Below are positions 4,639 to 61,909 of a stretch of DNA of 64,000 bases, one piece after another. Source of the DNA: Catajapyx aquilonaris. Taxonomy: Eukaryota. Each line of letters opens with the position of its first letter. Within the stretch, counting starts at the first letter, position 1. The translations under genes were made by a program, and so were the position numbers. The stretch lies in assembly GCA_000934665.2 (NCBI GenBank), contig JYFJ02001220.1, forward strand, positions 1 through 64,000, read 5' to 3'. Under the pieces are notes generated by a model. That model did no database searches and was not told the origin of the DNA. It worked only from the letters and a program-made list of their open reading frames with translations.

Positions 4639-5939
4639 ATGAAGACGCTCATGTTTTCTTCCATCTTCTCAATGCGTGAGCCTCTTATGTCTAAGCGTGT
4701 TTTTGACATTAATGGCTCGTACTTCAATTTACTCTGATGATGTATTTTACATGACCGTTTGTCATGTTCTCCCACATAAATGCCTTGGGTTGGTTTTTCG
4801 TCCTTCTCATAATGTTGTTAGTGCCCACTAATAACAAGCATCTATGGAAAGGCTGTGGGAGAATCCCACTATACCGACTGTAGAACGTATAGAAGCACAG
4901 AAATTGAAGGACGAAAAACATCCTTTGTCTCAAAATGCGAACAAATAACCGCAGCCTGTTTAATTTGGTAAAATGTTACGGTGAAATTTTATTATTTTGA
5001 AATTATGAGTTTGAAAAGAAATTTGAAACGAAATTATGGATTTTGAAAAGAAAATTAAGCTGGTAGAGAGTGATAAATTATTTACAACGGGAAGTAATTT
5101 TACGGAGTATTATTTTACATGTTTCACTGATTTTCTTTACTCTGCACCAGATTTATTTGCCAATTATAAATTTTACGCGCCTGTGGCCTGTACATTTCCT
5201 ATGCATTAATTTTCAGTGTGCGCATTTAAGTTGATTTTGGCGAGTACTACTTGCATTCAAGACTTGACCGAGCAATCGCAAAATGTGCCTGACGACAACC
5301 TTGAACAACATTGCCAGCAAGTGTCTCATTATTTTTTTAAATAACCATTATTGACATCGTCATTTTCAACCCTTTTTATTTCCTCCCAAAATGTTATCTC
5401 TGTTATCAGATTAACTCGGCAACTGGTTGATTGCTACGAACACACGCTGAAGAGTGCCAACCTCACCCCATTTGTGACTGAAGAGTATGATAAGCAGGCG
5501 GCCAGTTTGAGGAAATATCTAGAGGTGAATGATACAGCTTTATGGTTACATACAGTAATAGCAAAATAATTTGTTAGGTGCTTCGAGTGTTCATTTTTGA
5601 GATTTGTTTTACAAGACACGGATGAATAATTTTTTTCTGGCCGTGGATGTATTGTTGTATGTTACAGTTTTCAATACTTGAAAAAAAATTATAATCAGGA
5701 AATCCTGCTTATTCTGCCCTATTTGCATCTACACAACCTTGGGGGTGTTATTTTTGAAACCCGCAAAAATAATCAACCATCAGATGTAATTAACGACCAC
5801 CTTTTGACTGGCAAGTGACGAAAGTGTTTATTTTTTTCAGGAAAATAAATGCTCCGGTGGGAAGCGCACCACATCCTCGGCTTGGTTGCTTTTCACGTCC
5901 ATTATTGCAGCAGCAATAATGAATCAGCACCTGAATTAG
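4639..5939 (+). CDS. Array gene B: single-domain, putative GPI-anchored, 116 aa (GC-AG intron 2)
   Basis: Exons 4639-4675, 5217-5316, 5410-5524, 5841-5939. MKTLMFSSIFSMLCAFKLILASTTCIQDLTEQSQNVPDDNLEQHC-QLTRQLVD-CYEH...RKYLE-ENKCSGGKRTTSSAWLLFTSIIAAAIMNQHLN*. Confidence 0.8.
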
Positions 5940-17038: not shown

Positions 17039-18007
17039 ATGAAGGTCCTCTTCTTGTGCGCTCTCATCCTCCTGACAGGTCAGTATAGTTGTTCACACGT
17101 GGTGTTTTGAACAGAACTACCGTCAATTTGGTTTCTCTTACTATCTGCAAACTTATTAATGTCACCCTATAAAAAGACGATTCATATCCAACATTATAAT
17201 GGTTTTAAACTGTAAACAAGCTCATTTTGGAAAGAAACCTATGCCTACTAAAATTAGCAAGAATTTCATTGCCTCAACACACAAGTAGTGCAATCTTAGG
17301 CCCAAAATGATATGAATGTTGAAACGCGATTGTTTGCCCTTTGTTTTGTCAGTGTGCCACGTCATCTCGGAGGAGAATTCCGGGTGCTTTCTGAAGCTCC
17401 TGGACAGGTTTAAACCACTGGACGAAGGCACTAAAGAATGGTGCAGGTGAGTTGCCTGATCGGTTTAAAAATGCATGTCGTTGTCATTCCTATATACCTT
17501 GCTCATTTAGACTGAAGTGAAATAATTGACTGGAGCAGAAGGACATGCTGCTGCAAGTTTCAGAGTATTAGCCTGCTAAAATATTTACGTGCGTTTTGAT
17601 TTGTCACCACAGGGTCGGTCGTCAGCTGCTGGTTTGCATTGAGGGCTCCGAAGCGACTGTTGAGTTGAAAGATGTTGTCGACGTGTACCTGAAGCATCTT
17701 CCCAACAAGATCCGTGTAAGTTATTATGCTCAAGGGCTTGTATTCACAATGCGCATGACTCAGTCGGTTTTCAATTTCACAAACTAACGACAGTGCAATG
17801 CATAATATATTATACCTTTCTGCACAGGGAAAGTGCTCCGCGGGCTTGGGCAGGGAAAGGGATGAACCGGCGGAGCCGGGTGCTGGTGATAATACGGGAA
17901 GGAACAAGAGGAAGAGGTGCAGCTCAGCCTGCGCCATGATGGGGCCAACCATCGCCGCCTGGCTCCTGCCCCTGTTCGCCCTGCTCAGGAACCACCTCAC
18001 CTTCTAA
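17039..18007 (+). CDS. Array gene E: single-domain with extended basic stalk, putative GPI-anchored, 138 aa
   Basis: Exons 17039-17078, 17353-17446, 17613-17715, 17828-18007. MKVLFLCALILLTVCHVISEENSGCFLKLLDRFKPLDEGTKEWC-RVGRQLLV-CIEG...NKIR-GKCSAG...GRNKRKRCSSACAMMGPTIAAWLLPLFALLRNHLTF*. Confidence 0.9.
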
Positions 18008-18632
18008 CGTGCACGTCTTTACAAGCTTTTGCAGCCAACAATGTAAATCAAACAATCAAGGATACACACACTCTCCCACACTTTCATTTAGACCACCCCC
18101 CAAATGGCATGCCCTCCAACACATTTTTCTATCGCCTTTCTACCAGCACATTGGACTCCGATCCAAGTTAAAATACAGCATCTTTTTGTACGACTCACAA
18201 CATACATTTCCGACCTGTTTCCGTAGCATAATTGTGTATCCAGGCAGTGGAATAAAAATTTCACACGGACAGTGTAATGCAATAAAGTAATTGTAAAAAT
18301 ACACTGTTTCTTTTCCTGTGCCAGCAGAACTTATCATGTGGACATGTTCATATGAAAGTGAATCAGTGAAATAATTATTCTATGGGGCCCATGATTTCAA
18401 CCTAGAAACTTTAAATGCATCAGTGAAAATGCACCTTGGAGATTCACCTTACTGGCCTTTTATTAAAATAATCCTTTTCACTAACCGTCTCCAAACACAT
18501 TAATTTTGCATTGAAGCCGCGAAAATATTGCAGAGCATAAAATCGAAGAATAACTGAGCGACTGTACGGCATTCTGCTCCATTCGACTACTTCCACAGCG
18601 GTGACAAGATGCTGACACCGGATTTCGGATCT

Positions 18633-19316
18633 TTATGGGCCTAAAATCCTGCCCAATAGTGTCAGCAGACCAATCAGGACAGCGGGGCCCGCAGTCGTAA
18701 GGAGAGTACCTCCGTCGTGCTCGTCCTCGTCGTGTTCATGGGGTTCCTCGTCCTCATACTCGTCTTCATCATGCTCCTCGTGCGCCTCTGTGCCAAACGC
18801 ACAGGCCTCCCTAGCCTGAAACACACCGAATGTCGCATTCAGAAAACCCCAACCATCATCAGACCATTGTTGTCAACAGTCAGAATGCAAGTGATACTGA
18901 CCGCAGCTATGTTTGAGTACTTCTTGTACTCCTCCTGGTACATGTCTTCCGTCATGAAGTCGAGCGTGCCGTCGCCCCTCAAGGTTTTCAAGCACAGAGA
19001 GGTCCGATCAATTTTTCTGCGGTATTTCAGATATCAGATTCGGAGAAGGGGAGAACCAATGTACACGGTGTACTCACATCTGGCAGCGAGCCATCCGGTC
19101 TGTTGGAAGCCGGTCCACGAACTCTTTGAGGCATTTCCTCAGCTTGCGATGCGCAGACTTCTCGTCGTCTCCTTCCGGGTGCTTACTCACGTCAGCGTAA
19201 CACCCTGCTGTGTGTACGGAAGACAACTAATGTATACCGATATAAGAAAAGGAACTCTAGGAATAGGAAAGAGCTGTACCTGCCAAAAGGAAGACCAGCA
19301 AGGCGATGACCCTCAT
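18633..19316 (-). CDS. Array gene F: Cx9C subfamily with His/Asp/Glu stalk, putative GPI-anchored, 153 aa
   Basis: Exons 19316-19280, 19204-19078, 19016-18902, 18815-18633. MRVIALLVFLLAGCYADVSKHPEGDDEKSAHRKLRKCLKEFVDRLPTDRMARC-QIKIDRTSL-CLKTLRGDGTLDFMTEDMYQEEY...AREACAFGTEAHEEHDEDEY...AGPAVLIGLLTLLGRILGP*. Confidence 0.9.
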
Positions 19317-19483: not shown

Positions 19484-20225
19484 TTACAAAATGTGAGGGG
19501 CAAACACCAACAGCAGGCCAATCAGGGCCATTTGACTCTGTCCTTTAGGGGAAGTCGCGCTATTTTTATCCTTGTCCTTGAGGTCGCCTTCGTCGTAGTC
19601 GTAGTGGTCGTCTTCGTCGTCTTCGTCCTCGTCGTCGGTGTGTACGTGAGGGATGTCGTCGCTGTCACTTGGGTCTAAATACGCATCTTCTTCCTGTGCA
19701 TCAGCCTTCGGGAAGCTCAAGCAGGCCTCGTTTGTCTGGAAGAAAAATTGTTCAATTAACTGCAATTAAGATCGGGTTATCCACTATCAGGTGTAATGTA
19801 GATCTGATAACTGACCGCCAGTTTGTCTGAGTACCTCCTGTACTCCTCCTGGTACTTGTCCTCCGTCATGAAGGCCAGCAGTCCGTTGTCCCTCATTCTT
19901 TTCAAGCATATGCCTGTCCGTTCCATTTTCCTGGTTTCATAATAATATTAATTAAGGTCGGTTTGCTCATGGGTATAAAAACTATGTACTCACATTCGGC
20001 ACCGTGCCATGGGATCTGTTGGAAGCTGGACCGCAAACTCTTTGAGGCATTGACTCAGCCTCAGATTCGCCTTTACCTCGTCGTATCCAGTCGGGTTCTG
20101 GCTCACGTCAGAGTAACACCCTGTAGTCGTTGAGGGCAAGACAAATGTATAAGTTGTTGGATCAATATTGGATGGAAATACTGACCTGCAACCGTGAGGA
20201 CCAAGAGGACGATGATGACCCTCAT
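19484..20225 (-). CDS. Array gene G: Cx9C subfamily with Asp-rich stalk, putative GPI-anchored, 177 aa
   Basis: Exons 20225-20186, 20120-19994, 19930-19816, 19735-19484. MRVIIVLLVLTVAGCYSDVSQ...SQCLKEFAVQLPTDPMARC-RMKMERTGI-CLKRMRDNGLLAFMTEDKYQEEY...NEACLSF...DDEDEDDEDDHYDYDE...QMALIGLLLVFAPHIL*. Close paralog of F, with the same exon 2/3 sizes (127/115). Confidence 0.9.
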
Positions 20226-20326
20226 TTCGACGGACTCTCATTCCATATTTATTGTTGAAGACATAACAATAATATCAGTTTCCTTCAAGCATTACTACGG
20301 TGATGTTTGCAAACAGTCGTTCGAAA

Positions 20327-21442
20327 ATGAAGGTAGCCGTACTCCTGCTGCTCCTGCTAGCAGGTCAGATATTAATTAGAGTAATTAGATATTTTGAGGT
20401 GTTGAGAGTGAAATCAGTGGATACACAATATTTCATGATAGACATATTGAAGAAATTACAGAATGAGCCATTGGATTTGCTAGGCGCGACATTTTCCAAT
20501 GTAATTGATTAAAAAAAATGCATGTCCGTTTTTCCTTTGTATGGAGCACTCTAGAAATGCTCAGTGGGGTCATATTTGCTGGAGAAGGTCATGAACATAT
20601 CAGATGTGACTTAAATCGCAGAAGAGCAAAACAATAGATTCATTGATTATATTGACAACAATGAAAGATTCAGTCAAAGTTTGCTGTGGAAATGGGCGCA
20701 ATGCAGCCCACATGGAGTGCATATTTTTTTAATGAATTTCAAAAATGTTAACCTCCGAGGTCATCCAAAGTGGTCACCAACTGACAAGTGAGTGTAGCAC
20801 ATTACCTGTATATGAATGATTCGTTTTCCAGGTTGCTACGGAGAAGAACAACCGGATGAGTACCTGCCAGACGACGTGAAGGCTGCCCATCAGAACATGC
20901 AGGAGTGTGTCGACAGGAACACCGAACTCACAGTGGACAACCATGTCATGCAGTGCGTGAGGTTAGTATAATGACACCTTCGAAGTGGGGGGAAAGAGCG
21001 TGCAAGTGGCAATGTCCGTGTCTTTTCGCATAGGAAACTGAGGGTGTCAGGGGTGTGCTTCAAGCAGCTGAGAAGGAAGGGCCTGCTGAACTACATGGAC
21101 GAGGATGCCTACCAGTACCAGCTCAGGAGGTTCACAGACGAGAAAAGGGTTAGTATTAGCATGATGTGCTTCAAAATACTGCCTTACTGGATGACTTGGA
21201 CAGTGCAACAGCTTGAGGGTATTACACGCGGTTTGCATACATCACAACATACTTTTTTCACGCAGATTAAGGAAGCTTGCAAGGATTCATCCGTAGACGA
21301 TCAGGAGGATGACAGCGACGCCGACGTCGACAACCAGGCCAATATCGAGGACGTCGTCAAGAAGAATTCCTCGCCAAATGGTCCGGTAGTCCTGATTGGA
21401 CTGGTCGGAGTTTTGGTGCCAATCTGCATTTATCTGGTGTAA
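20327..21442 (+). CDS. Array gene H: Cx9C subfamily with acidic stalk, putative GPI-anchored, 152 aa
   Basis: Exons 20327-20363, 20832-20961, 21034-21148, 21266-21442. MKVAVLLLLLLAGCYGEEQ...QECVDRNTELTVDNHVMQC-VRKLRVSGV-CFKQLRRKGLLNYMDEDAY...IKEACKDSSVDDQEDDSDAD...NGPVVLIGLVGVLVPICIYLV*. Confidence 0.9.
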
Positions 21443-21760: not shown

Positions 21761-24104
21761 ATGGAGTGTAGGATTATGGCTCTGTTTCTCTTCGTCATTG
21801 GTTGGTGAACATCATTCTGTCATGCCTTATTATTATTATTATTCGCCCTGACGTTATCCATCAGCGTTTACCACCTTTTCAAACAGGGTCCCAGGGAAGT
21901 TACTTCATGTGGCAGGAGAATCCTTTAAGAATCCGGGAGGCGTCGGAAGCCCTGCAAGCATACATAAAGTGCAAGGAAGCCGGACAACGAGGGAAGAGTT
22001 GTCGGGTGTAAGGAAAAAAATATAAGTAGGAGTAAATTAAGCACAATTTAATAAATTATCTATATGAAAGACAATTAAATCGAATCCATCAGACAAGTTT
22101 AACGACGCGATAAGTTTGACTTCATAAAAATTCAGTTCCGCTATCATCTTATAACCAGAAAATTTGTGTTGAAATGATTGTAATTTTTAAACGAGCCGTT
22201 TTTTTTCACGTATAGGTTGCAGTATTATTATGATTGTGATTTGTGACGATTTATCAATTCAGTTTTTTTGGACATCAGGGGAGCCAAGGCGGCGGAAAAA
22301 TGTTTCGTGGACTTGAAGCCAAAAATGTCCTTCATGACTGACGATGTTTACCAAAACAGGCTTAAAGCGATTCAAGAAGCAGCTCACGTAAGTTTAAATC
22401 TACAGCCACACTTTTTGTAACTAAAAGAGACTTGCCACGATGGGATTTATTTTCGAATATAGTTTCGAGTATAGTCCTACGTGGCCTAAAATCCAGGGTG
22501 GTCCTTGTGTTTACAGCAGTATAATAGGAAGGTGTAGCACAGGTCTCGAAAAGAGCGTACCGGTAATGCATAACATAATCATTTTTCATTTTTCATAGGT
22601 TCATAAAGAATGTGTTCAGTGGTCGCAGAAAGATAAGCATATACTGCAGGATCTGATCAAGTTTCATAAATGCATGATCCATTCGGAATTCCCAGAGATC
22701 ACAGACTTGGAAGAACGATGTGAAGAGTAAGAGCGAATTACATTCACATGCACGTATAAAAATGCAGGAAGGTGCAATGATCCACTCTATACATTGCACC
22801 ACCCTGCATGTATCCCTATATCATTCCATTGAAATTCTGACTTCCGCATCAGGGGAACCGCATCGAAGCAGATGTGCCTGGATGACCTGTTCGAGGACAA
22901 ACATATTCACATGATGTCAGAAGAGGAGTACGAGGACGAGATGAAAGAGTACCAGAAGGACAAGGCTCGAGTAAGTTGGCGGATATACCTCACAAGTCGA
23001 CGCATCGTAATTAATTATTGCACTTTAATCTGGTTCCAGTGCAAGGTTTGGGCGGAAGAGAAGCTCAAGTGGGACACGGAAGAAGGACAGCGGAGCATTG
23101 AGGAATGCAAGGGCAAGGAGGCCGAATTTGGGAATATTGTTGACCCTATAGAGCTTTGCGTACGGTATGCAAATTAAGCTGAGATATACTGTAATGTATA
23201 TTGGATTGACCCCCTTCCCTTCCTCTCGCAGAAATGTTTCTGTTCCGGTTATGTGCATGGAAAGGCTGAAGGACGAAGGGCTCCTCTACTTCATGCCCGA
23301 CGAGGAATTCCTAGAGAGGGTGGGGAAACACGAGAATGTTTCCATAGTAAGTTATCAGTCGTGTCAGTGACGTTTATCGGGGAATCAGTCCATATAGAGT
23401 TTCACAATCATTCCAACCTTTTAATTGATCGCTTCTTCAAGTGAGATGTCAACAAACCATTTAAATTTGCATATGAATGTAAGGGGGGAAAATATGAAAT
23501 GTCGACTCAGACTGTTAAGTGCTAATGACTATAATATGCACCGCTGCGTTACAGAAGGAGAAATGCAAACAGTTGCTGTTGAACCGGAGCAGGTCAGAGG
23601 TCCTACAAATCTACGATTGGGACAAGGGCATGAGAGGATGCCTCAGGCATTATCGGAAACACGAGGAGAGCGAGAGGGCTTGCCAGTAAGGCTTCACAGG
23701 ATACTGTTTTTTTTATAACTGCTTGAGAACTGACAACAATTTTTCGATTGTGCCATTTCCTCAGGGAAGCCACGAAATTGAGGGAATGCATGACCGTCGT
23801 TGGGTTTGCACACAACATGACCTTAGACCTTAGACACTCCACTTTTATGAGGAAGGTCCGTAAAAACCGTGTAAGTATGTACAGCACATTCCGAAATAAT
23901 GAAGACGACGCGACGTTCTATAATATTATAGAGTAAGAATTCATGTCCATTTCTGTACATTCTTCACCCGTCGTAAATGTAATCCTCGTTTGTTTTCATT
24001 TGCAGGCGATTAAGTGTGCCGCTTGTGTTGGTCCTACAACGACGCTCTGGATGCTCGCAATTCTGTCCATCACAGTCTCACTCAAATCATGGCTCCAACT
24101 GTAG
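21761..24104 (+). CDS. Array gene I: four tandem Cys-helical domains plus CAAC-type anchor tail, 363 aa, 10 exons
   Basis: Exons 21761-21800, 21887-22007, 22279-22387, 22599-22726, 22853-22970, 23040-23164, 23232-23346, 23555-23685, 23765-23870, 24006-24104 (phases 1 then (2,0)x4; 1092 nt, open). Motifs CRVGAKAAEKC, CEEGTASKQMC, CVRNVSVPVMC, CQEATKLREC. Ends AIKCAACVGPTTTLWMLAILSITVSLKSWLQL*. Confidence 0.85.
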
Positions 24105-46854: not shown

Positions 46855-49800
46855 ATGAAGCTGGTGGCAGCTCTTTTCCTGTTCTCGTCCGCTCTTCTGC
46901 TCATTGCAGGTGAGGTTTAGGTTGGCGTGACGGACCGTGACACTGGTGTTAACCACAAGTGGTTGCTTCCAATGGATTAATGTTGAAGAGAAAACAACTC
47001 AGTAAGCACATTCATACGTCGGGATTAATCTCGCTAAAAATTATTTCTGTCAGTGCATTACCCTGCGTATCAGGTAGTACATGTACAACACAATGCAGAG
47101 ATATCCAAAAGTAGGTCACGACTGGGAGTTTTTCCCACACCCATCTCCCTTTGCACGCCATGTCACGCAATATCACACAGGTTACCTTCTCAAAAAGAGT
47201 ACATTACCTTGATGTGCACCATTCCTAGGTAATTTTAATACAAAAACCAGTGAGGTCGAATGGCCGAATTTTTTAGTCGGTGTCCCTGTAAATAAATAAA
47301 TAAATAAATAAGCTTAGGCGTGGTATATTAGTCACGCGTTCTTTTATTTCCCGGTAGAGCCTGACACTAAATATTCATTCTCATCATGTATAAATAGCTG
47401 CGTTTTTCCCCGGGACATTTGCTTATTTATATTAATCTATTCATTCATTTATAATCATGTATATGTCCAATGCAGGAGCCGCTAACAATGTTGCAATATG
47501 AAGCCAATGAAGGCCTCCTATAGCTGAAGTTTGCCACTACTGCACCTACCGGTATCATGATTGAGGACAAGCAGGGCAAGCATGGAAGCATAAGGTGCTG
47601 ATGGAAAAATCTGTTAATAAAATTGAATTTTTTTTCCATTGTTCTGACTGGATAGAAACTGTTCTTGCATCGCTCAATCCTTTATTATACAAATCAGCGA
47701 GTGAGAGGCAACATTTCCTGGCGTCATCCATTCATGTATTTGCTGATCTGTGTCATGCAACAGGCATTTTTGTCCCATCATGACTGGTATTGCGTGCAGG
47801 TTTATTGTGGCATAGCATGTGTGCCACTACCCGACTCCAGCAATAGCAACAAGCGTTCTTTTGTAATATGATGATGTGTTGATAATATTGTATTGATGGA
47901 GTTGCAGTTTCGTGTACATTATTTTCTCTGTGTTTGTCTGCAGGTGTGGTGGTGGGTCAAGGGGTTGGTCAGGGAGACTACAGAGGAGGCCAGGTGGACT
48001 ACAGAGGTGTCAACAACCAGCAGGGTGACCCCAGGGGTCCCCAATGTGACCTGAACCGTGTGCAGCAGATGCAGCAGGAGGCTGCATCCATGTCATTCAG
48101 CTGGTCCAACCTGGACGACTGGTGCAAGTAAGGCATCTCTTTATTTGCTCAGGGTGTGGTTCCAAGTCCACACGATTAAAAACAGCACCCAATTTGTGCC
48201 CGCAGCAAACTCAGGGATTTGATATCGGCCATGCAGAACTACGCCTCAGATTGCCAAGGGCAGCAGCAGGGGCAGGCCCCGGGGCAACCAGGCAGACCAC
48301 AGCAACAAGTGGATGTCCTGTCGGGCATCAGAAATGTGTCCAGAAGCATGTGCGAAGATCCATCATTTCGACAGCGTACGTAATCCAATCACGTTGCAAT
48401 GATGCCGTATTGTCACTTATCCTTTTCTTACAACTCAGAGTACCGCAACTTTGCCGATTGCTTGGAGCGTGCTGGTGGTCGCGTCCAGGATTGCAGCAGA
48501 GGCCTCCAGTCCCTTCCGCCCCCGCAACCGCAGCAGCCTCCTTACTACAGCAATGCAAACACGCAGATCTGCTGTCAGTACCTGCAGGCCACCAAGTGCA
48601 TGCGCAACGGGATCATGCAGATGTGCGGATCACAGGCCGGTGACTTCTTCCAGGAGATGGCCAAGAGGAGCCAGAGTCACATACTCAAGGTATTATATAA
48701 CCGAGCACCAAATAGCCAGAGATTGGCGCAATTAATTTATAAACAGATTAATCAAATTCAATAACAGCGAATTAATTCTAAGCCGAATTGAAAGGTTCTT
48801 CCAGTAATAATTCAGCCAGTAAAATTCGTGACATTCATCTTAATTCAGTACACTTTCCATTCATTTCCATTCAATTCCACTCGCGTCCATTCTTGCATGA
48901 ATGTGGCTTCCTCCTATTCAATTATTTTAAATTCATCAAAGTGGAGCAAGTCGCACATTCATTCACTTCCGGATGGTCCCATCACAGCATTCAGTGTTAT
49001 GAATAATCACAAATGGTAATACTCGTAGATTATCCTAATACATCTTAATATCTCGTAGATTATTATAAATCTATCGGAGCTAGTAGAAAATTCCAAGTAG
49101 GCCTAATCCGAAGCTAAGCAAAATGTACATGACCAGCAAGTGCTCTCACGAGTGTTCCTGAATTCAATAGAAACAACAATCATTGCCACAATAATAATTT
49201 GTCCAGATTGTTGCTTCTCCATGCTCTGGTCGTGTCGTGAATAACTTGAGCCACTTGTTTCCGTTGTAGGAATGCGAACTTGGGGAGTGCACCACCCTGT
49301 GCTTTTTGGGCGGCCACCGCTCTGTGTATATTATATGTGTGTTGCTAAACACATGCGTGGACATGAGGAGACGACGCGTGACCTCGCACACATAATAACA
49401 CTCTGATGAGAGTCGGTTTTCTTAGAATGCGAAGGAAACGAAGGACTCTCCGCGTCGGAGGAAGATAATATGAGCGGAGTCACGAAGGCAAGGTGCCTAA
49501 TACTGCGCATTGCTCTGTGCATTGTGACGTAACCGTCGGAGGAAAATTGGCAGTAATCGAGTCACCAGCATCATAGACATGGAAATTGCACTGACCTAGT
49601 GCAATTAGATTATGCAAGTAAATGTCACTTGGCAGGCTAATGAAAGGGTGGGCGAAATTCGGCCTGAAAATATAGTCTTGTCTGATAGGCTGGCACGGGA
49701 CCATTTCTGCCATATTTTGTCTTTCCTCCTTCAGCCAGCCCTGAAACAATCTGGGGTCGACTAATGCCAGTTCTAAAATTGACCCCCGCTGTTGCCACCC

Positions 49801-50130
49801 TGATCTAAATTCAGCAAAATGTCGCAATTCCTTCCTTAGGCCCAATGCCAGGACCTGAACCAGCTTCGTTGTGCAAACGAGGACACAGACATGAACCGGC
49901 ACGACGGCCACGGATACCAGCCAGGCGGCGGCGGATACGGAGACAGGAACAACTACGACAACCGTCCATACAACGACCGGAACAACAACAACAACTACGA
50001 CAACCGCAACAGCTACGACAACCGGCCGCCTCCTCCTGGAGGCAAACGCAACGCAGGTTTCCGACCAGACGTGCCAGGTCTGGTCCTCATCCTGGCAGCC
50101 ACCTTGCCCTTAGCCTACCTGCTGTACTGA
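46855..50130 (+). CDS. Array gene R: two-domain CC-type protein with Gln-rich loops and YDNR-repeat stalk, putative GPI-anchored, 316 aa
   Basis: Exons 46855-46909, 47944-48127, 48206-48375, 48439-48689, 49840-50130. MKLVAALFLFSSALLLIAG...QCDLNRVQQMQQ...DDWCNKLRD...SDC...MCEDPSFRQQYRNFADCLERAGGRVQDC...QICCQYLQATKCMRNGIMQMCGSQAGDFF...AQCQDLNQLRC...GGKRNAGFRPDVPGLVLILAATLPLAYLLY*. AATAAA at 50160. Confidence 0.88.
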
Positions 50131-50343
50131 GACCATTTTCTCATTCTATCGAAATGTACAATAAAAGAGGCTGAGCCAAGGCTCCGTCCTTATTTCCAGC
50201 CGCTCACCTGAGAGAACAGGCGGGCAAGGTGAACTCCTTGACGTCACCCACACCCTTACCCCCGCCCCACACAACATACGACACATGCAAGACTCTCCCA
50301 ATGATTTTGAACCATTCCCTCCCGCAGCCTCCGGCCGTTCAGG

Positions 50344-53300
50344 ATGGGCACATCTGGCACGCTTTGGCTGCTGGCAGGTAAACACACCAGATCGATTCAC
50401 ATATTTTTGTATTACTAGTATCAAGAATTGCTAGATTGCCTTCAAGGTCGAGATTGGGTACCAGGAAGTTGCGGGTGTTTCGGAATGTTTAGAGAGTGAG
50501 CTGATTGTCTCGTAATTACGTACCTGGAAGTGTGCATGATCTGAACGGGATTTGGGTACAATAAGTTACTGCATGTTACATCACAGCCGCGAATTTAGAG
50601 TAGGTTACACGTGTTAATGGATGGTGGGATGGCTCTCTCAGGCGTATATGCTCAGTGCAGGATATCATTCAAAATGAATTAATTACCCTGGGCAATACAG
50701 AAAAAAAGGCTTTGAGTTGATTCTAAAATAATTACTCGTATTTGAGTAGAGATTGACATTCGCTTAAATTTTGTAGTTGAAAGTCGCCATCCGCCGCATT
50801 AAGCTATAACAATATTTAAATAAATTTTCTTCTTTCGTGTAAATTATAACCAGTTGATTATACATTGTAGCATTGGGATAATCACAGCATCATAGTTCCG
50901 AATATCGAAGTCAGTATGTATAGCAACATGTGGTGATTTTATTGCATTCATTTCTTCTGGCCTATTAAACTTTTAGCGCTTGATCCTAGTATCGCCATAA
51001 GCACGTGTCCCAAATTTTGTGCAAATCTGAAATTGTAGGGATATTTTTTTTTTGCAAACTATCGTGGAATTACCCTTCAGGCAGTATTCAAACGCAAACT
51101 GGCCAATATTCTACACATGTTGTTTTTTTTCGAGTGAAGGGGGCGTAAAATCTATTTTTGGTTGAGATAATGGTACATTAATCATCTGAGCCTGTGAGGA
51201 AATGTGCAGTTATGCAATAACGAGACAAGAATAAAATGCACATCTGTGAAGAAACAGGTTCAAAACACGTGCATCGCCATCAGCTAAAAGCACGTGCCAA
51301 AGTGATCGATTACAAAAAATATTATTCATCCTTAACAAACAGAATTATTCTCAGTTGGAGGTACTTTTTCTATAGTTTATTGCGGTTTTCCTGTCGGTAC
51401 ATTGCTACAAGTACTACTGTAGTAACTAGGATTTTATCTTCTGCTCTCTGGATTATAATAGACCATTATATGTTATGCATAATAATATTATGCAATGATC
51501 AATTCGCTATTAAATATTTTTCAATCGGATTTTTGGTATGATTTGGATAAATATTTTTGCATAATTATTGCTAACGTAGACTATAATATACCACTCTTTT
51601 CAATTAGTGCTAAAAATTCACTGGCCAAATGTAAATTTTTCATTAGCACACCCAAAGTGCTCACCTAAATTTTGACATACTTATATAGGTGTAATACACA
51701 GTATTTATGGTAAAACAACTGTGAGATATTAAATCCGGAGAAATATTTCAAATCTACGAAATATTACTATTCAATGAGTTATGAACAATTAACTGATGGA
51801 ATTTTCCAATATGCAGCAATAGGTAATGAAGACATTAAACATCCTGTATAATTACACGCCGCTGTTAAATAACTAACTGCAGTAATGACATGCAAAGGCT
51901 CTTTTAAAAAACCCACCCACCAGCTGCAAAGTATGTGCTGATGACAATACCCCATAATTATTATCAAAGTATGTACGCGCCCATATTTGCATGCGAATTG
52001 CAATATTTAAAGCGAGCCAATCCCATATAGTCTTCTGACAAGTTAAATTACTGTAGAAAAATATGTGCATAATAATTATGATTAATTGTTGTGCAGCAGC
52101 ATTGTTGTGCACGGTGGGGCCATCTGTGGCCCAGTGTGACCAGGATGCTGTTGACAGGCTGGAGACCCAGCTGACCCAGCTGACCCAGGACGGCAACCCT
52201 GCCGCCAACGCTCTCTTCATCGACGCAGCAGAAGGACCTTGCCGGTACCAGTTTTCTCTTAAGTTTTACACACACAAAAAATGGACAAAAGGACACTAAA
52301 AACCCTGCCCATTACTGACCTTATCGTGTGACCTCGTCGCCCGGCAGGTATGTGGAGAGCGTGTTGAACAGCACCGATCGGTTCGTGAAGGAGTGTGGTC
52401 AGGCCCCTGAGGTGGTTCCTCTCAGCCAAAAGGCCCAGGTGCTTAGGCAACTATGGCTAAGCGTCTGCGTCGAAGGAGACGGACGAGCCGGTATGTCTGC
52501 GCATAGTTCTGCGCATAAAGTTCACGCGCATAGTTCTGCGCATAAAGTTCACGCGCATTGATTCTGCGCATGAGTGTGCATGGCGCATCAATTCTGCGCA
52601 TGAGTGTGCATGGCGCATCAATTCTGCGCATGAGTGTGCATGGCGCATCAATTCTGCGCATGAGTGTGCATGGCGCATCAATTCTGCGCATTACCACTGC
52701 GCATATGTTCTGCGCATGGTCACAAACTATGCACATGCGCCGTTTTTTGACAACGTGAAATCTCAACTCTAATTGATGTCATTTTTTCTCTCTTCAGCTT
52801 TGCTGGAGCATGGAGTCTGCTTCGAGGAGAATCGAGATGCGATTTGGAAGTGCATTTCCCAGTTCAATCGCAAAATGGATCGGCTGATTGGCTCTGAGCT
52901 TCCTCGACAGGAGCAGACGCAAGGACTTTGTTGGCAAGTTTGACACTCTTTGTTAAGTCCTCTTCTTTACATTTTCTCCCGTTTGGTCACACCAAAGCCT
53001 ACTCATAGCTAGAGAGAATCGTAGGCTCGTAGCTAGAGAGAGCTGGAACGGGCCTAACAGTTTCTTTAATGAATGGGTAGGACTCGAGACATGTTTATGT
53101 GTGTCTTGTTTGGGGGGGATTTTCACGCCTCTTTTTTGCGCGTTGAGAGTTTGGAATTTGCATTTTCAAAACCGTGCCTTCCCGTGACGGGCATCCGTGA
53201 AAATGGATCCTCACGCGACGCATACGATTCATATAGTCCTTGAAACAACCGTCTTCAGGCATACTTCCAAATAAATATTCAGATTCAGGAACGTGCCTGT

Positions 53301-54561
53301 CCATTTATATTTTTGCACACATTTTTCTTGAATATTTTTAAAAGAAATGTGGATCCACTTAGTAAAACCATTACCTGCACGAGGGATTCCGAGATATGAG
53401 TTACGACATAGCCTTGAAAAATACAGGCGTGAGAAAAATCTCACTATTCGCAAGAATTATGGGAAAAAGAGTGTGCTTTATTTTTTTAAAAAAATTTCTT
53501 TGGCGCAGTGGCTACAGGGTGTACCGGATGTGCTTGAACTATGAGACCAGCAGCGCCTGCGGAAAAGATGCTGCGGATTTTCTGGACGAACTGGTAGAGA
53601 GGACGTCGGGAGACATTTTCCGCGTAAGTAGGTCTAGAAAAATATTTATTTTAAAAGGTATGGGGATTATGTGACGTGTAAGAAAATATATATCTCTCAG
53701 AGAATAAGTTGGCGTGACCGTGAGAATTTAAATGAAAAATACCACACACTTCCTTTGGTAATTTATCAAGGGTTGAGTCACAGAATTCCTGGAAAGTTAT
53801 GTGACTATGAGGCTATGCATAGATATTAATGGGTGGGGCTATGAATGTAAAGAATTATTAAATTATCTTCTGCATATGATTAGCTATTGGCTATTGGCTG
53901 AATGAAGAGAGTCATGCAGCATGTTGTACAACCAGGCCCAATCCGGCCCTTGTTTTATGCAATATTTCTGTGGCGGAAAATAGATAACATCGCGCGTGAC
54001 TAGAGCACGTGACAAAAAGATTTTAATGACCACTCTAATGCATTAAAGATAAAAGGGTGATTGAAGATTGTATCAAACCCAAGTGTCTTATCACATTTCG
54101 CTCGTGTCATAGAAAATATTCGTATATTGACAGGCGGAAAGTTAGGGTCTGCTCAAAAATGGACAAACTTCCACTTGGGCATTTTATTTTAACGTAAATA
54201 TTTGTTGCGGATTTGTTGCTGTCGCGTACATTAAACTCACTCTAACGTCAATTTTATCAATATTTTTATGCCAGTTCAAGATGCACTGGGTTCGACATTT
54301 CTCATCACTGAACAGAAGTCATCGTGACAGCAACTTGCATGGCGTGTTCCTGTACTTGTTTTTAAAATACCGTACAGTTAGAGTGATTGGAAAGTAGCTG
54401 GTTTTTAATTGGTATGTTTCCACCAGGTTTTCTGCAACGATCACGACGGAGTATGTCCTGGAGAAGAAGCTACAGCATTTGAAAACTCCAGCACACGTCC
54501 AGAGCATTCCATACTTGTTGCATTCCTAATATTCCTCACGACACGTTTGTTCTGCTCGTGA
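50344..54561 (+). CDS. Array gene S: two-domain CC-type protein, putative GPI-anchored, about 236 aa (GC-AG intron 4)
   Basis: Exons 50344-50377, 52097(or 52100; NAGNAG)-52244, 52348-52490, 52798-52933, 53509-53623, 54427-54561. MGTSGTLWLLAAALLCTVGPSVAQCDQD...GPCRYVES...KECG...SVC...GVCFEENRDAIWKC...GLCCGYRVYRMCLNYETSSACGKDAADF...VFCNDHDGVC...NSSTRPEHSILVAFLIFLTTRLFCS*. Exon 1 is the least certain assignment. Confidence 0.8.
52499..52691. repeat. Intronic minisatellite: 2 x 27 bp followed by 4 x 30 bp GCGCAT-rich units
   Basis: gcgcatagttctgcgcataaagttcac x2 (52499-52552) and attctgcgcatgagtgtgcatggcgcatca x4 (52561-52680), plus a partial unit. Confidence 0.95.
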
Positions 54562-54879
54562 TAAATCAAGTCATCATGATGTACAGCTCTCTCTCTCACA
54601 CACAACACAAAAAAAAAGATTTTAAATAAATTTGTTTCTTATACGTACACATATTTCTTCCGTTCCATCAATATTAATATGTCCACTCGAACCCGACTGG
54701 ACAAAAAAAGGTTCCATCACGTGTAGAACCGGTCCGGTGATGGTGGGTATAAGGCAGTGGATCAGTGGGCCAGCAGGCAACTGGCCCAGTGGATTTTTAG
54801 ACCTCACTGGGATATATGCAGGGTAACCTGGAGAGAGCAGGGTAGTTTTCCTCGTCGCACCCACTCCCGAGCAGCAGCC

Positions 54880-55998
54880 ATGGACCGTTTGTTGCTGGTA
54901 TTGTTGCTGCTGATGGCGCCAGGCATCGGATCTCTTCCGGTAAAGGACCCTCAATCGGTGATGCTCAACATGGCCCAGGGATGCAAGAGCCTGGAGGAAG
55001 TGATCGCAGAGCAGCCCGGATCGTCCCTGGTGCACCAGAGCAAAGGGGTCAAAGCTGCCCTGGCCCTTCTGTGGGGGAACCTGTGCAACAGCTCATCCGA
55101 CGCCATGGAGCTCCTGAAGGTGCCCACGTGCCTGCAGGTCAACGAGAAGAAGATAGCCGAATGCTTCAAGGCCACCACTGGACACGCTGTGAAGGAAGCC
55201 AGGGCTCTCAAGCAGACCCAGGAATGGAGCAAAGTCGTCTGTGGGTCAGTATATAATTTTCCGACTCTATTTTTGGGACAGGGTGTGGCTGTATGTGGAC
55301 TGTGTCCCTCTTCCAAAATTGGCTCGTGTTTTTGTTTGTGCAGGGTTACCAAGCAGCTGAGGAGCTGCACTCGAGCCTTTTGTGGTCAGCCCTCCGATTT
55401 CCTGGTCGACTTGGTCAAGCTTACTTCCACACTGGCACTGCAGGTACTAATTCCTCAGGATATTTCACGTGTAGTTAAGAATTACTCGCTCTAGCAACCA
55501 AGTTTGTAGATCAGAAACCATCAGACTTCACTTTTCAATAAGATATTCACAACTTGATTGTACTTGGATTTGGACAGTGCAGTATTCTGTGTGTATTCAT
55601 GTCATCGTGAGCAAACAAAACGTAATGATAAAAGCGTGTGCATACGTTTATTGCGTTTTGTTTGCTCGCTTCTCACTCGCAACGGGGTTAATGACCACAG
55701 CATGATTTAATATTTGCACAGTTCTTGAATCCTGTGTAAGACCTGGGCTGAATCGTAGAAGTCATACTTACCCGCAGGTTTCTAATAATAATATTGTTGA
55801 GGACAGCAGCTGTCAGCCAGCAAGGAGAAACCTGCGGTTGAGGTCATACCTTCAACGGTCGGCCTAATCTACTAAAGGGTCGTTGGGACCTCCACTAATT
55901 ATTATTATTGTTGGGCAAATACTGACAGTGTTGTTGGCCATTTTCAGGGCTCCGGAATGGCAGCAAAATACGGCAGCGAATGTTTGGACCACGCGTGA
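54880..55998 (+). CDS. Array gene T: intron-poor, N-terminally shortened two-domain-type member without anchor (secreted), 171 aa
   Basis: Exons 54880-55244, 55344-55443, 55948-55998. MDRLLLVLLLLMAPGIGSLP...QGC...GNLC...PTCLQVNEKKIAEC...VVCGVTKQLRSCTRAFCGQPSDFLVDLVK...-GSGMAAKYGSECLDHA*. AATAAA follows near 56044. The last exon is the least certain. Confidence 0.75.
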
Positions 55999-56401
55999 AC
56001 CCAACGGCGTAATTTATTGTATTCTAATCGGTTCAAAAATAATAATAAAAGTACTAATCGAAATCCGACGCGCATTTATTCGAACTGCGCGTGGGAGACT
56101 CGAACAGAAGAATGGGCGACGTTTGATGGACAAGAAAACAACATTGTTTTTTTTTTTGTTCAAGGAGACGTCGAAGGGGAAAAGGATGAGTCCTTTGTGA
56201 CCTTGACACTGCGCACTTTCTTCCTGCTCACTTGTCCCACTTAAACCGAACCAAGGACACGGACAAAATGGATGGGTTTTTATGTAACACTTTCTTTAAT
56301 GGTACCAATACGCGATGCATACAAATAAAAAAACAAATAATAGGGGGGGCAGTGGGCTCGTCAGGTGGGTGATGGGACTTCTTGTTCTGATGGGAGATCA
56401 C

Positions 56402-58777
56402 TCAAGCTCCATTGTTGATTTGTGATGGTAAGGTGTCCACATCCCGGCAGTCGGTCTCCACGTGGCGGCAAATCGGCTGCAAAAAAAGGGGGTCATTTAC
56501 ACTTACTTTCAGTAAAGAGTGTGAGGGGGTTCACTTTTTACCACGAGCCCCCAATAGCGTGCTTCCGTCAACAATGCGAGGGTGAAAATTGTTTTGAGAC
56601 GTGGCAGAAATTAGAGTTGGTTTTTTTTTAAAACAAAAAAAAGTTAACGCTCCGAGGAATAGCCTTTCCCAAGAGTGTGATTTATTTTTTTGGGGAGGGC
56701 TGTTTTAAATGCGGACACGCAACATTCTAACGGGTTTTGTTCCAAGGCTTTGCATACTACTAGTCCAGCGTCGGATGAAAACCATGACCTTGTTCGGATC
56801 TGGTCGTCAAGAATCTGAAGGTGAATTGCAACCCTCCCTCCCTCCCTACCCTACTCCACACCCCTGAGGGTGAAATCTCAGCACTTTCATTTAAAAATTC
56901 CGATTTAAAGTTCTGTCGCACGAAACAACCAGTTCGGCTTGTTATTAGGTCGTTTTATCCGAAGAAAAAATCAGGTGCTTTTAGAGGATATAAAAGTTCA
57001 TAAAATATGCATAATTTTGTAATGAGAAATACTATAAAAATATTTTTGAGCAATTTTCTATTACATTTTCAAAACTGGCTCGATCACTTCCTGAATGCCT
57101 TTTTTGCTCCCGTTCATTAGTGTATAGAATATTATTCATGCGCTATTGATTCAATCACACGAGGGAAAAATATTACTTCACTTAGTTGAAATATTTTTAA
57201 AATCCAAAGACCGTTAAGTGCTACAATTGTATACAGAATTGGAAACCACTCAAAAATAATTTAACTGTCTGACCTGTGGTACTTAATTTTTCATATAATT
57301 TAATAAAGTTTGCAAAAGTGAATGAATTAATAAAATATATCGTCTACAAATCCACCAAGAAATTGTTTTAACGTTCAAAGTAACTTATAAGTTGCCGAAA
57401 TAATATTGGTGACTGATGTTGGAGCAACGGAATTTTTGTGTATTAAAACTACTGCTTTCCGATTGCATGGATGATTGGGAAATATTATTATCAGCTGACC
57501 AACTTACGTCATAGATAACGCTTCCTATTTTGGCTGCCAGAAGTGTCACCCTGGTCCTTCCCTGCGCGTCACAGCTCAACGATCCGGAATCACGAATGCA
57601 AAGCAGGTACTTTTCAATAGAGCTGTAAAAAAACGGGGTCGCATTATTAATTTTTTGTATCACCGTGCATAAAAATACAGATCCCGAAATGAGAAGCCAT
57701 ATCGTCCTCGAAGGGACAAGTAGGCCTGTCCTCTCTCCATTCGTTCCAATAAACTAGTTTGCTGGTTTATTATGTCTCATGGTCTACCGGGATCGTACAA
57801 AAAAAATTGATATGAACTTACCAGCAGAGTCTGTTGAAGTAAACGTTGTTTTGAGCAAGCGATGATGCTGAGATGAGTCTCGAGTGAGCTGCCACCGAAT
57901 CCCGGAAATTGTTCACACAGCCCTGGACAGCCTGAGCATTTCTGATCAAACACGGGTCTATCCCAAGCCCTTGAACTAGAAAAACCAGTGTCACCACCAC
58001 ATTTTTTAAAAAAATTTCCTCATTAAAAATTGACTCACGCTCCAGCATCAGGTCTGACTGTTCACACTCGGCCTTGAGCAGCTCCTGCAGCCCTTGCAAG
58101 ATGCGCTGGTCAGCCTGGGCCTTGCTGCAGCTCAGCAGGACTTGAGATCGGTCCAGCAGACTCTGCATCCTCCTGCATAGAGCTGGAAGCCTGCCCTGGG
58201 ACACCAAGGGCTCCAACTGCAGGCTTGTCAGACCCAATCCTTCCCATTCCAGTTTCCAGGACTCCAAGGCAGTCATGTTGCATTCAGGGCTGGGAACACT
58301 GGGCAAGGTCAAAGGTCACGTTAGGACACATCAACAGGTAGGATACACTTTTAACCTCCTGAGACCCCTGGTACAGTATACTGTACCTTTCTTTTTTCCA
58401 GCACCTTCTGACTAACTCAAACGCTTAAAAAACAAAGGTACAGTATACTGTACCAGGGGTCTCAGGAGGTTAATAGTAGATAGTGTACACTCTAATCAAT
58501 AAAAATATTATATTCCGTTGTTTATTCAGCTAATTTTGGGCTGACTGCTAGCACGAGCAGGTACATGAACCGCGCAATTAGTTTCTCAATCCGGAACAAA
58601 CCATGTTAGTCCTGCTACCATACACACCCGCCTAATTATCCACGCATTCTGCTGATACCGCCTGAGGCTAACATTTTTTGATCTGCGAAGTAATGGGGCT
58701 CACCTTGGGATATTGGCTGCTGTTCCGCATTGGAACAGGAGAACCACGAAGGACAGGGCCTGCAGGACTCGGTACAT
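56402..58777 (-). CDS. Array gene U: two-domain CC-type member, ends without hydrophobic tail, 225 aa
   Basis: Exons 58777-58704, 58298-58039, 57975-57822, 57622-57508, 56476-56402. MYRVLQALSFVVLLFQCGTAANIPSVPSPECNMT...ALCRRMQ...LSC...AEC...DPCLIRNAQAVQGC...RLCCSIEKYLLCIRDSGSLSCDAQ...PICRHVETDCRDVDTLPSQINNGA*. Confidence 0.8.
58351..58473. mobile_element. TTAA-flanked MITE (piggyBac-like), 115 bp with perfect 36-bp TIRs, in intron 1 of gene U
   Basis: TTAA|cctcctgagacccctggtacagtatactgtaccttt ... aaaggtacagtatactgtaccaggggtctcaggagg|TTAA. A TTAA target duplication and CC termini are piggyBac hallmarks. Confidence 0.8.
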
Positions 58778-60380
58778 TGCTTCTCGTTCCTTCTTCGACT
58801 GGGGTGATGACCACCTTCTGGGTTTGTGACCGACTGACTGAAGAGATGCCTGATGCACTGAGAGGACAGCCCCTTTCTCTTCTGCTCCTCCTTCCCTACT
58901 GCTTCTTCTCGCTTTCTACACCACCGCAGAAGTGATTATTATCTCTTTTTTTCCTGCAGTCCGCTAATTACGCTTCTCCTCCCCACCTTGACCTCGGATT
59001 CTGCGATTATTCGATATCCTACCGGGGTTTTTTTTTGCCGGTATGTGCCTGCCGGCATTGCTATCGTGCTCTGGTAAAAAAGGAGGGCTACAATAAACAT
59101 GGGAATTACCAGATCTGAACGTCATAGGCAACCGAGTCGTAATAACCGCAAAATCCTTCCTTATATTTTCCGTGAATATCCTGCACACACTACGTACACT
59201 GTACGATTGTTGCTTGATAAGAAAGGGAAAAGAGGGGAAGGAACAGGAAATTGCAGGAGGGGGTAATAAAGAAATTATTACAAGCTCGTGTTCTGTTTTT
59301 AGTCATCATTTGTCTGGACAATTGTTTGAGGTCGTGTACAATATTATTTTCATGCAGGAGAATTTTTAAAAAATTGAAGGTTTCAATACTGTAATTACAT
59401 GTGCTATAAGGAAATGTGCTGGGAATAAACTCTGTCTATATGCCATCAGGAGGAACGTCAAATGTGTTAATTTGATACGATTTACAATTAGCACTAACGG
59501 CCGTAAATTATTTTTTTAAAGACAACATACGCCATTACAATTTTTGACGGGTATAAGTACATTTGGATAAAAACGAAATTGTTGCGAAATGGTGGTGCTT
59601 CTAAATTTATGAATTCATGAACTGTCGTATTAAAAAGAAGCACTTTGTTGTAAGCAACATGCACGGTTGCTGAAGTAAACAATCTGCAATTTGTTCACCT
59701 ATATGCCATTACTTTGTAATTGAGACTTGGGTAGTTGTAAGACAGCGAAATACATGGTATTTGCCCTAAAGCTTGATTAAAATGATCACTATAATCTCAA
59801 ATCAGGTCTTGTGCCACAAAATTACAGGTCGTGAATTTCACGTGATTGCACGTTCCCATATAAGAAAATAAAGGTCATTTTAAAGCCCTGGTTACGTGAC
59901 ATTTATTGGTCTTAATTCGAGCAACCTTTGGGAAAAATCGGCGGTAGTGAAACGTACAATTTGAAATTCGCAAGTGCTTAAACGTGACAAGTGGGTGCAA
60001 TAAGTAGCATGTACTGCGAGACGCCTGTTACACCAAGGACGGCGCATGTACGACTGTTAAAACGCTTGGTTGGCGTCCAATTGATTCGACGAGTCCGTTC
60101 AGCGTCCGTAACAATCAAGAAAAATGATCAAAGGAAAAAAAATGTCGAAAGGTCACGGCTGGTGGCAGTCACAATAATTACTATTGAACGGACGCGATGA
60201 TGACTTCACAGTCGTTGTGCTTTATGCGGTGTCAGCAAACAAAGACGGAAGCGGTTTTTTAATCCCACTTCCGTCACGGTTTTCTGTCGTGAACTTTGCC
60301 TTTCTCCGTCCGTCTCTTTCTCTCTCTAGACACAACATTTTTCTTCCATCCCCCTTTTTTTGTCCTCCAGCCGCATTCAC

Positions 60381-61909
60381 ATGGCCTGCTCATTGTTGCT
60401 CCTGGCCATTGTTGAGGCTCTGCTGGTGGTGTTTGTGTCCGGGCAAGGACCTGATGTGGACTACTGCGAGGACGACTCCTTGGCTCAGGAGTTGGACGAT
60501 CTGCTTCTGGGACAAACCCTGGAGGCTATGGAGGCTGCTGGAGAGGGCCGCCCCGGGGCCGCCCTGCTACCGGACGAAGCCCGTGTCGCCAATCTGTGCA
60601 AGTATGTTTATATGCAAAGAGAATATTGTCTGGATGTGTATAGCTTCAGCTTTTTAAAAATAAACTTATCGAATATCACTAGCAAAAACTTCCACCAACA
60701 AATAAAGAGCAGTAATGCAGAACGATCAGTGAAACAATCCAATGATTTCAAGATGTAAAAATTACGAAGCTAAAAATTACCTTAGCACCATCAATCACTG
60801 CAATATTCATCATTTGGCGACAAAGCCTCGTGACATAAACCTTTTTTGTCCACCTGTCAGAGACATGACGGACGTGACAGACCGAGCCAAGAATCAGAGT
60901 GCGACATGCTTGGACGAGTATGGCCTTCCGGTACACAACACGTCTCAAGCTCAAGATGTGGCCGAAATTATCCAGATTCTTACGGATAACAAGTCGCATA
61001 AGAAGATTTGCCTCGACGGAGACTACAGATTCGGTCAGTGACCCGATTAGGGTAATGAGCAAGTGTCGCATTGTTGGGTTTTTGGAGAAGGTCGTTTTTT
61101 GGAATTAGATGTGAGATTATGCCAGTCCCAGGAGAAAGGCGGGGGCGGAAAATCAGGTCGGTTCAACATGTAGGGGTTGAGGCCTCCTGAGTGTATAGTA
61201 AGGCACACCAGAATGCACTTTTTTCCGCCCTGATAGCTTTTGGGCTGAGAGTTTGAAAGTTGAGTTCATCATGCAGTGGGCTGTGGAGAAAAAAAAAAAA
61301 AGAATCGTGATCGGGTCTTTCTTTTACTTTTGACCTACTTGAAACAATTAAGGCTATTATTATTCTGGTTATGTATCCAGATCTGTCCCACGCAAGTGTG
61401 TGCATCAAGACGGTTCCGGATGCTGGGAAATGCTGGACCATCTATGCTGATCGTAAGAACATGATGGACGATTACGCACAGGACCATCCGAGGCACAACA
61501 TGTTGCATGCTACTTGCTGGTCAGACCACTCGATTTGTGATGTTCTAACGTTGAAGTAAATGTAATGTTCATTTACAGTGCTTATGTGTACTTGTACGAG
61601 TGTGTGTACGAGTCCATGAAGGACGTCTGTACCGAGAGAGAAGCCGAAGCCGGCAAACAATTTGTGATGCTGACCGAAGGAGGGGCTCTGGTATATTACT
61701 CTTTACCTTATTAATATTCATACCGCATTACCTAATGATCTCTATTATAATAAGTTTGTAACTATTTCCAGTGGCAATGCGATGGTCTGGAGCACCACTG
61801 CCCTAAGTATGGATCAGACTGGAGCATGTCTGGAAGCGGCGGAATGATGAGCCAGCTGCTTCCGTGGACCTTCTTCTTCTGGACTCTGCTTGTTATGTTG
61901 GGGCAATAA
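60381..61909 (+). CDS. Array gene V: two-domain CC-type protein, putative GPI-anchored, 260 aa
   Basis: Exons 60381-60601, 60861-61033, 61381-61519, 61579-61690, 61772-61909. MACSLLLLAIVEALLVVFVSGQGPDVDYCEDD...ANLCKDMTD...ATC...KIC...SVCIKTVPDAGKC...ATCCAYVYLYECVYESMKDVCTE...WQCDGLEHHC...SGSGGMMSQLLPWTFFFWTLLVMLGQ*. Confidence 0.9.

Follow-up and report, generated by a model that had tools for sequence, protein, structure and literature searches.

A tandem array of four-cysteine mini-protein genes beside DUF19 genes in Catajapyx aquilonaris: likely kin, possibly formed by internal deletion

How are the short genes of a tandem array, each coding for a small protein with four core Cys, related to the two-domain genes that stand next to them? 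The question is raised by the first 64,000 nucleotides (nt) of contig JYFJ02001220.1 of Catajapyx aquilonaris (eukaryotic DNA; contig of 86,588 bases, 285.6-Mb assembly GCA_000934665.2); this whole stretch is called the window below. In the first-pass annotation, whose lettering A–V is kept here, the mini-proteins were tied to the C-terminal half (C-half) of the two-domain genes and derived from a two-domain ancestor by loss of a domain and of some disulfides (or the reverse), and the locus was held to preserve the origin of the family. Kinship of the two classes was found to be very likely: a phase-2 intron, a Cys register of +9 and +41/42, a helix-loop-helix arrangement and a modest profile match are common to both. 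The assignment to the C-half held for the phase-0 intron with the anchor exon behind it and was not supported by sequence, since the phase-2 intron is common to both halves and the non-Cys residues match the N-terminal half (N-half) better. No neighbour was demonstrable as the parent, and the statement about the preserved origin was not supported. The origin preferred here, at somewhat less than an even chance, is an internal deletion that joined the N-half of a DUF19 gene to the last, anchor exon.

Twenty-two gene models were built by coordinates (Table 1): 16 single-module genes (A–H, J–Q), one gene of four modules (I) and five long genes (R–V), the latter filling the interval 46855–61909, whose ends are the start codon (ATG) of R and the stop codon of V; three further long genes (W, X, Y) lie on the same contig beyond the window. 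Contigs of one public run (X1) gave spliced joints in nine genes (R, S, U, V, C, D, J, K, L); coding joints seen: U – 4 of 4; S – 4 of 5; R – 3 of 4; V – 1 of 4 (the last joint; the joint at the CC pair of V was unseen). The CC-site joints of S and U, the 115-nt exons of C and D and the N-half phase-2 intron of R and S are thereby backed by reads. The models of T, A and E–I are without read support (no spliced joint of T among the X1 contigs; E–I without cover in them, which says nothing on expression), and the first exons of C and S lack read confirmation.

The long genes are ordinary members of DUF19 (T20D4.11-like; PF01579) with internal repeats. Exon 4 of R gave 26.7 bits against PF01579 (Pfam gathering cut-off 23.2), and P0001, a database protein 79% identical to the last exon of X and colinear with the X model, gave 26.4 bits, above the cut-off; the last exon of X reached 17.1 bits, below the cut-off, and no PF01579 match was obtained with single exons of S, T, U, V, W and Y. 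Hydrophobic N-termini were found in 7 of the 8 long genes (first exon of W not found). The AlphaFold2 (AF2) single-sequence model of P0001 is all-helical (predicted local distance difference test, pLDDT, 75.6; predicted template modelling score, pTM, 0.57) and may be read as two three-helix units. Foldseek gave no match at E 0.001, PDB sequence searches gave nothing useful, and VIA-align returned generic helical bundles only (best Z 9.4, root-mean-square deviation 2.9, 82 aligned residues, nearly all on the N-half), so that superposition has little power to separate the halves. For exon 4 of R no relative was found by word search, none among 1.84 billion representatives; a search with the alignment of C-half exons retrieved P0001 as the sole database protein, and P0001 retrieved only itself. 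None of the database searches yielded a spliced mini-protein, no word search having been aimed at the mini-protein exons. PF01579 as query against the genome gave no match, the exons being too short for it; with exons as queries, further members of the family were located on six contigs.

The splice features reported in the first-pass annotation were confirmed, with a few exceptions given below. The second Cys of the CC pair is split by a phase-2 intron in S (52933/53509), U (57822/57622, minus strand) and V (61519/61579). The following exon is 115 nt long in S and U, in half of the single-module genes (8 of 16; B, C, D, F, G, H, O, P) and in one of the four modules of I (exon 7); wherever the last exon of a single-module gene is resolved (15 of 15), this exon has a phase-0 end and the next one starts 2–4 residues ahead of a Cys. 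In V the exon after the split is of 112 nt and in T of 100 nt, T having C-G instead of CC; R is without the CC intron, and its 251-nt exon equals the 136 + 115 nt of S, which strengthens the pattern. Exon 3 of the other eight single-module genes measures 118, 103, 100, 103, 112, 91, 121 and 142 nt. The reported split between Cys and K, Q or R was seen in 9 of the 13 single-domain genes with C-x8-C, the other four having S, A or N; in F, G, H and three modules of I the intron lies one codon later (C-x9-C, one extra residue). Later Cys stand at +9 and +42 from the first Cys of CC in R, S, U and X, and at +9 and +42 from the matching Cys in the mini-proteins C, D, O and P.

The shared exon length may mislead for two reasons: the last Cys, two residues into the final exon, sets the 115 nt via the Cys spacing, and an internally duplicated gene has the same intron in each of its two repeats. 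Against a uniform draw over 18 allowed lengths, 8 of 16 genes at one length would correspond to P about 8e-7, paralogues not being independent draws; 115 nt is largely fixed because of the phase-0 intron and the Cys at +42, and intron and length are thus one character. Elsewhere in the genome the C-half exon (n = 17) is of 115 nt (7), 112 nt (7), 118 nt (2) or fused (1); 115 nt is therefore common to the whole family in this genome and gives no special tie to S or U. The N-half is likewise split in phase 2 right after its second Cys, at a non-Cys codon, in R, S, V, W, X and Y (residue after the Cys: N in R, R in S, K in V), a feature absent from the first-pass annotation. On this contig the intron splits a non-Cys codon in each of the 13 mini-proteins and each of the 7 N-halves compared, and a Cys codon in 7 of 8 C-halves. 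Two conserved paralogues on contigs C881 and C2783 carry C-x8-C and the phase-2 intron in the N-half (N-half Cys at +9, +17, +41; C-half Cys at +9, +18, +42), while the other 21 of 23 N-halves are without C-x8-C; with the intron in both halves and C-x8-C in two paralogue N-halves, neither marks a half. What sets the C-half apart is a single character, the phase-0 intron that precedes the last Cys and is followed by the anchor exon.

The residues between the Cys point to the N-half. Twelve C-x8-C mini-proteins were compared by hhalign with 15 N-halves and 15 C-halves: against N-halves – Prob 48%, E 1.9e-4, score 24.2 (shuffled maximum 12.8), a match below conventional significance; against C-halves – Prob 0.16% (range 0.16–1.4%), score 8.4, equal to the shuffled level. 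In a Cys-anchored alignment of 63 columns, Cys excluded, 12 of 12 of these mini-proteins scored higher against N, a preference seen in each of the four segments, the third helix among them (column bootstrap 0.16–0.48). Column permutation gave z 5.6 (N) and 2.9 (C), the difference being reached in 0 of 100 permutations; with a hydropathy-preserving null, N gave z 3.4 (0/200) and C z −0.4 (132/200). In a leave-one-out control, the same score assigned every one of 14 N-halves to N, and 10 of 13 C-halves to C; the best alignment register between the classes was at shift 0. The anchors were chosen by the analyst, N-halves without the helix-A Cys being anchored at C1+8, and the result stood when that segment was dropped; for C-halves from other contigs the last Cys was an assumption and not a reading of the sequence, and it was left out of the column scores and included in hhalign and trees; C509-type genes were used as a subset and pooled as one group.

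Automatic alignment of six N-half and eight mini-gene exons required short gaps only and lined up the start of the third helix. The C-half motif C-G-x-x-A-A-x-F was found in no mini-protein, and the matching stretch aligns with the N-half. In the AF2 model of exon 3 of gene C (38-residue fragment) a 6-residue loop is followed by an unbroken third helix; the P0001 model has a 5-residue loop and an unbroken helix in the N-half, and a 1-residue break and a broken helix in the C-half. The predicted fold of gene C exon 3 would thus have the N-type loop.

The same comparisons bear on the route first proposed, by which exons 2–3 (a phase 1-1 block) were deleted, the C-half was left, and C5–C10 and C8–C12 were then lost with drift; this route is considered unlikely. 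It accounts for the phase-0 intron, the 115 nt, the +9/+42 spacing and the anchor tail without a new junction; the +9 Cys is present in all local C-halves and absent from local N-halves, gene T has lost the front of its N-half together with C8 and C12, a gene on contig C176 is also without C8 and C12, and the mini-gene on contig C873 has Tyr where C-halves are often aromatic. The C-half gave no profile match (Prob 0.16–1.4%) and column scores at the level of the hydropathy-preserving null, its motif is missing from all mini-proteins, and the route would require that the signal peptide gain a new end and that four Cys be lost. Domain phylogeny put the 12 C-x8-C mini-proteins with N-halves on an unresolved branch (80/83) and did not reject the C-half (approximately unbiased test, p-AU 0.34).

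A number of results weigh against derivation from the N-half. N-half and C-half, taken as homologous, matched each other by hhalign with Prob about 1%, which indicates low power; with Cys masked, the hhalign score of the mini-proteins against N dropped to 12.8 (reversed control 13.7), and hidden Markov model (HMM) scores failed to separate forward from reversed sequences. The 12 mini-proteins are paralogues, so that 12 of 12 does not amount to twelve independent tests. With Cys retained, exon 3 scored higher against C in 10 of 13 genes and exon 2 showed no preference (N higher in 4 of 13); against the C881/C2783 paralogues alone, helix B favoured C in 8 of 12; F, G, H and the modules of I gave differences of −0.11 to +0.24, favouring neither half, and in the full tree F/G/H fell among C-halves on a long branch. 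The tree holding the N-halves together was not rejected at the p-AU given above, a test from which 10 of 42 rows had been left out (F, G, H, both halves of V, five C509-type rows). C-x8-C is present in the N-half of 0 of 7 complete two-domain genes on the contig, so that no local parent fits, and none of 21 N-half exons has its end at a phase-0 intron ahead of the last Cys, so that the junction must be assumed.

As far as the end of exon 3 the mini-genes look like an N-half, and from the last intron onwards like a C-half; this is nevertheless fitted most simply by an internal deletion. The parent would have been a C881-type two-repeat gene with the C-x8-C Cys kept in its N-half; exons 1–3 would have been retained to about nt 115 of exon 3, exons 4–5 lost, and the final Cys and the hydrophobic tail supplied by the last exon. 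One N-half disulfide (C1–C3) would then have been lost, two being left, and tandem multiplication of the half-size gene would have followed. In a 143-nt N-half exon the codon before the last Cys starts at nt 116; this codon is GTN in 4 of 21 N-half exons, and in S exactly 115 nt are followed by GT. A GTN (Val) codon used as a ready donor would, by conjecture, yield 115 nt and phase 0. Plain deletion of exons 3–4 (a phase 2-2 block) was set aside, the residues after the split being N-like, not C-like.

No junction by coincidence, and a single intron loss, would be needed if the mini-genes were descendants of a one-domain unit (introns 1, 2, 0) that predates the internal duplication; the C-half would have kept the phase-0 intron, and the N-half would have lost it yet stayed closer in sequence. 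We regard this as doubtful, and equally so the wider proposal of a three-helix family that takes in vertebrate neuritin as another survivor, with the mini-proteins as its remaining one-domain members and DUF19 proteins as tandem doubles of the unit. Gene I repeats the module with phase-2 and phase-0 introns four times, the Atlas neuritin cluster (PF15056 on 100% of 55 members) resembles P0001 at 0.77, a lead only on the Atlas's own scale, and neuritin is described in PMC12715718 as a protein of 142 amino acids (aa) with signal peptide and glycosylphosphatidylinositol (GPI) anchor. On the other side, PF15056 matched neither P0001 nor any of 29 single exons, and the only mini-genes located were those of this contig and of C873, as would suit an expansion restricted to one lineage; a genome search with PF15056 gave no match, such a search being unable to cross introns.

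Absence of any homology, i.e., two unrelated groups of small helical disulfide proteins whose phases and spacing agree by convergence and chance, is held to be improbable. Three-helix bundles are generic, the profile match is under conventional significance, and no Pfam family was found on any mini-protein exon (single exons of 32–47 aa; most exons of true DUF19 members fail too). Two intron positions, the +9 and +41/42 register and the best register shift of 0 are all shared, however, the z of 3.4 goes beyond hydropathy, and both classes are linked on one contig. A reading as odorant-binding proteins, prompted by the C-x8-C spacing, found no Pfam match in support.

A hydrophobic C-terminal tail, judged by hydropathy only, was found in 14 of the 15 single-module genes with a resolved last exon, D being the one without it; it is also present in I, R, S, V, W and X, and weak or absent in T, U and Y. 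The mini-proteins are without both the leading (helix-A) Cys and the +17/18 Cys; helix-A Cys and +9 Cys are jointly present or absent in the aligned N-halves, and C8 and C12 are both absent in T and in one C176 gene. Such joint losses suggest disulfide pairs, by which the mini-proteins would be left with C1–C3 and C2–C4. Secretion or GPI anchoring and a three-helix bundle fold are predicted for the products; predicted signal peptides, hydrophobic tails and low mutual identity argue for a likely role as variable, fast-diverging binding proteins at the surface or in secreted form. In the last exon of E (17828–18007) a charged spacer is followed by another Cys motif, which resembles a partly duplicated pre-anchor segment. 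Long acidic stalks were found in F, G and H (18632–21442), His-rich in F and G, and metal binding is possible. In R an Asn/Tyr/Asp/Arg-rich low-complexity stalk precedes the tail (last exon, 49840–50130), and Gln/Pro-rich loops are also present.

Elsewhere in the genome, a second tandem array (C509:42000–87059, C8368, C11400) consists of about a dozen two-domain members with N-half exons of 143–152 nt and C-half exons of 112–118 nt. Four tandem two-domain members were located at C176:15001–23200, one of them without C8 and C12 and one with a fused N-half. The isolated single-module gene on C873 (about 49650–51700) is close to gene C and has a 112-nt exon.

GC-AG introns were noted at the phase-2 site in S (52934–53508, backed by a spliced contig), B (5317–5409) and W (contig 65011–65139). 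In an X1 contig, exon 1 of L (29142) is joined to 29459, an acceptor 53 nt downstream of the modelled one, with a shift of frame; this splice form is probably non-productive. In gene C the main contig continues unspliced into intron 1 (11365–11770), by a retained intron or another transcription start. Intron 3 of S (52500–52720) contains short tandem repeats rich in GCGCAT. Downstream of the cluster, a 596-codon open frame (L004, minus strand from 1789) and a Cys-rich exon (L002, about 4980–5630) were observed.

Table 1. Gene models of the window, with exon coordinates and support as far as recorded.
Gene	Class	Position	Strand	Exons and remarks	Support
R	two-domain DUF19, 316 aa	46855..50130	+	46855-46909, 47944-48127, 48206-48375, 48439-48689, 49840-50130; no intron at CC	PF01579 match, three joints
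S	two-domain, 236 aa	50344..54561	+	50344-50377 (not confirmed by reads), 52097-52244, 52348-52490, 52798-52933, 53509-53623 (115 nt), 54427-54561	model, spliced contigs
T	truncated, 171 aa	54880..55998	+	N-half front missing; C-G for CC; 100-nt exon; no anchor tail	
U	two-domain, about 225 aa	56402..58777	-	58777-58704, 58298-58039 (N-half without intron), 57975-57822, 57622-57508 (115 nt), 56476-56402; no anchor tail	model, four joints
V	two-domain, 260 aa	60381..61909	+	60381-60601, 60861-61033, 61381-61519, 61579-61690 (112 nt), 61772-61909	model, last joint
A	single module	2525..3377	+	exon 3 118 nt; last exon open in model	
B	single module	4639..5939	+	exon 3 5410-5524 (115 nt) after GC-AG intron	
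C	single module	10711..12313	+	exon 3 11931-12045 (115 nt)	model, X1 joints, exon 3 fold
D	single module	14569..16216	+	exon 3 15747-15861 (115 nt); no anchor tail	model, X1 joints
E	single module	17039..18007	+	exon 3 103 nt	
F	single module, C-x9-C class	18632..19316	-	exon 3 19016-18902 (115 nt)	
G	single module, C-x9-C class	19484..20225	-	exon 3 19930-19816 (115 nt)	
H	single module, C-x9-C class	20327..21442	+	exon 3 21034-21148 (115 nt)	
I	four tandem modules	21761..24104	+	phase-2 and phase-0 intron in each module; exon 7 23232-23346 (115 nt)	
J	single module	25063-26517	+	exon 3 100 nt	model, X1 joints
K	single module	27843-28421	+	exon 3 103 nt	model, X1 joints
L	single module	29106-29891	+	exon 3 112 nt	model, X1 joints
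M	single module	31616-32506	+	exon 3 91 nt	
N	single module	33427-34709	+	exon 3 121 nt	
O	single module	37522-38414	+	exon 3 115 nt	
P	single module	39199-40193	+	exon 3 115 nt	
Q	single module	42374-44020	+	exon 3 142 nt	

Among known systems, the Atlas look-alike clusters of P0001 are mostly arthropod. The 27 kDa haemolymph family (DUF1397, PF07165) resembles P0001 at 0.90 with arthropod clusters; it differs in its length of about 300 aa, and P0001 is without a PF07165 match. That family is secreted and is reported from a mosquito peritrophic-matrix proteome (PMC5865745) and from the venom of a scutigeromorph centipede (PMC6878950). The Chondroitin proteoglycan 4 domain (PF15481; Atlas 0.76, on 53% of 98 members) is a lead only and differs by its nematode clusters. 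Neuritin/CPG15 (NRN1, PF15056) is alike in small size, signal peptide and GPI anchor, and differs in being a well-conserved vertebrate protein with no HMM match here. It has six Cys, probably in a spacing like that of the conserved N-half; the mini-proteins have four.

DUF19 itself, to which exon 4 of R and P0001 belong by the Pfam cut-off, comprises large nematode families with arthropod look-alikes; little is known of its function, and the PDB searches made here gave no solved relative. In C. elegans more than 80 paralogues, partly clustered on chromosome V and without RNA interference phenotype, are reported (PMC8410859). In comparison, the mini-proteins have one repeat, four core Cys and no Pfam match exon by exon. 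No description of a one-domain DUF19 form was found in the literature on DUF19, T20D4.11, DUF1397 and neuritin (titles and abstract openings; coverage of subscription papers limited), and the one-repeat tandem form appears as a variant of DUF19 not found described. The half-size tandem form would show that a single three-helix repeat can stand alone, and the mini-proteins are small proteins suited to expression and structure solution. If the neuritin lead were true, a well-studied vertebrate synaptic protein would be tied to an invertebrate gene family: neuritin would gain invertebrate relatives, and DUF19 a first functional handle as surface ligands or co-receptors.

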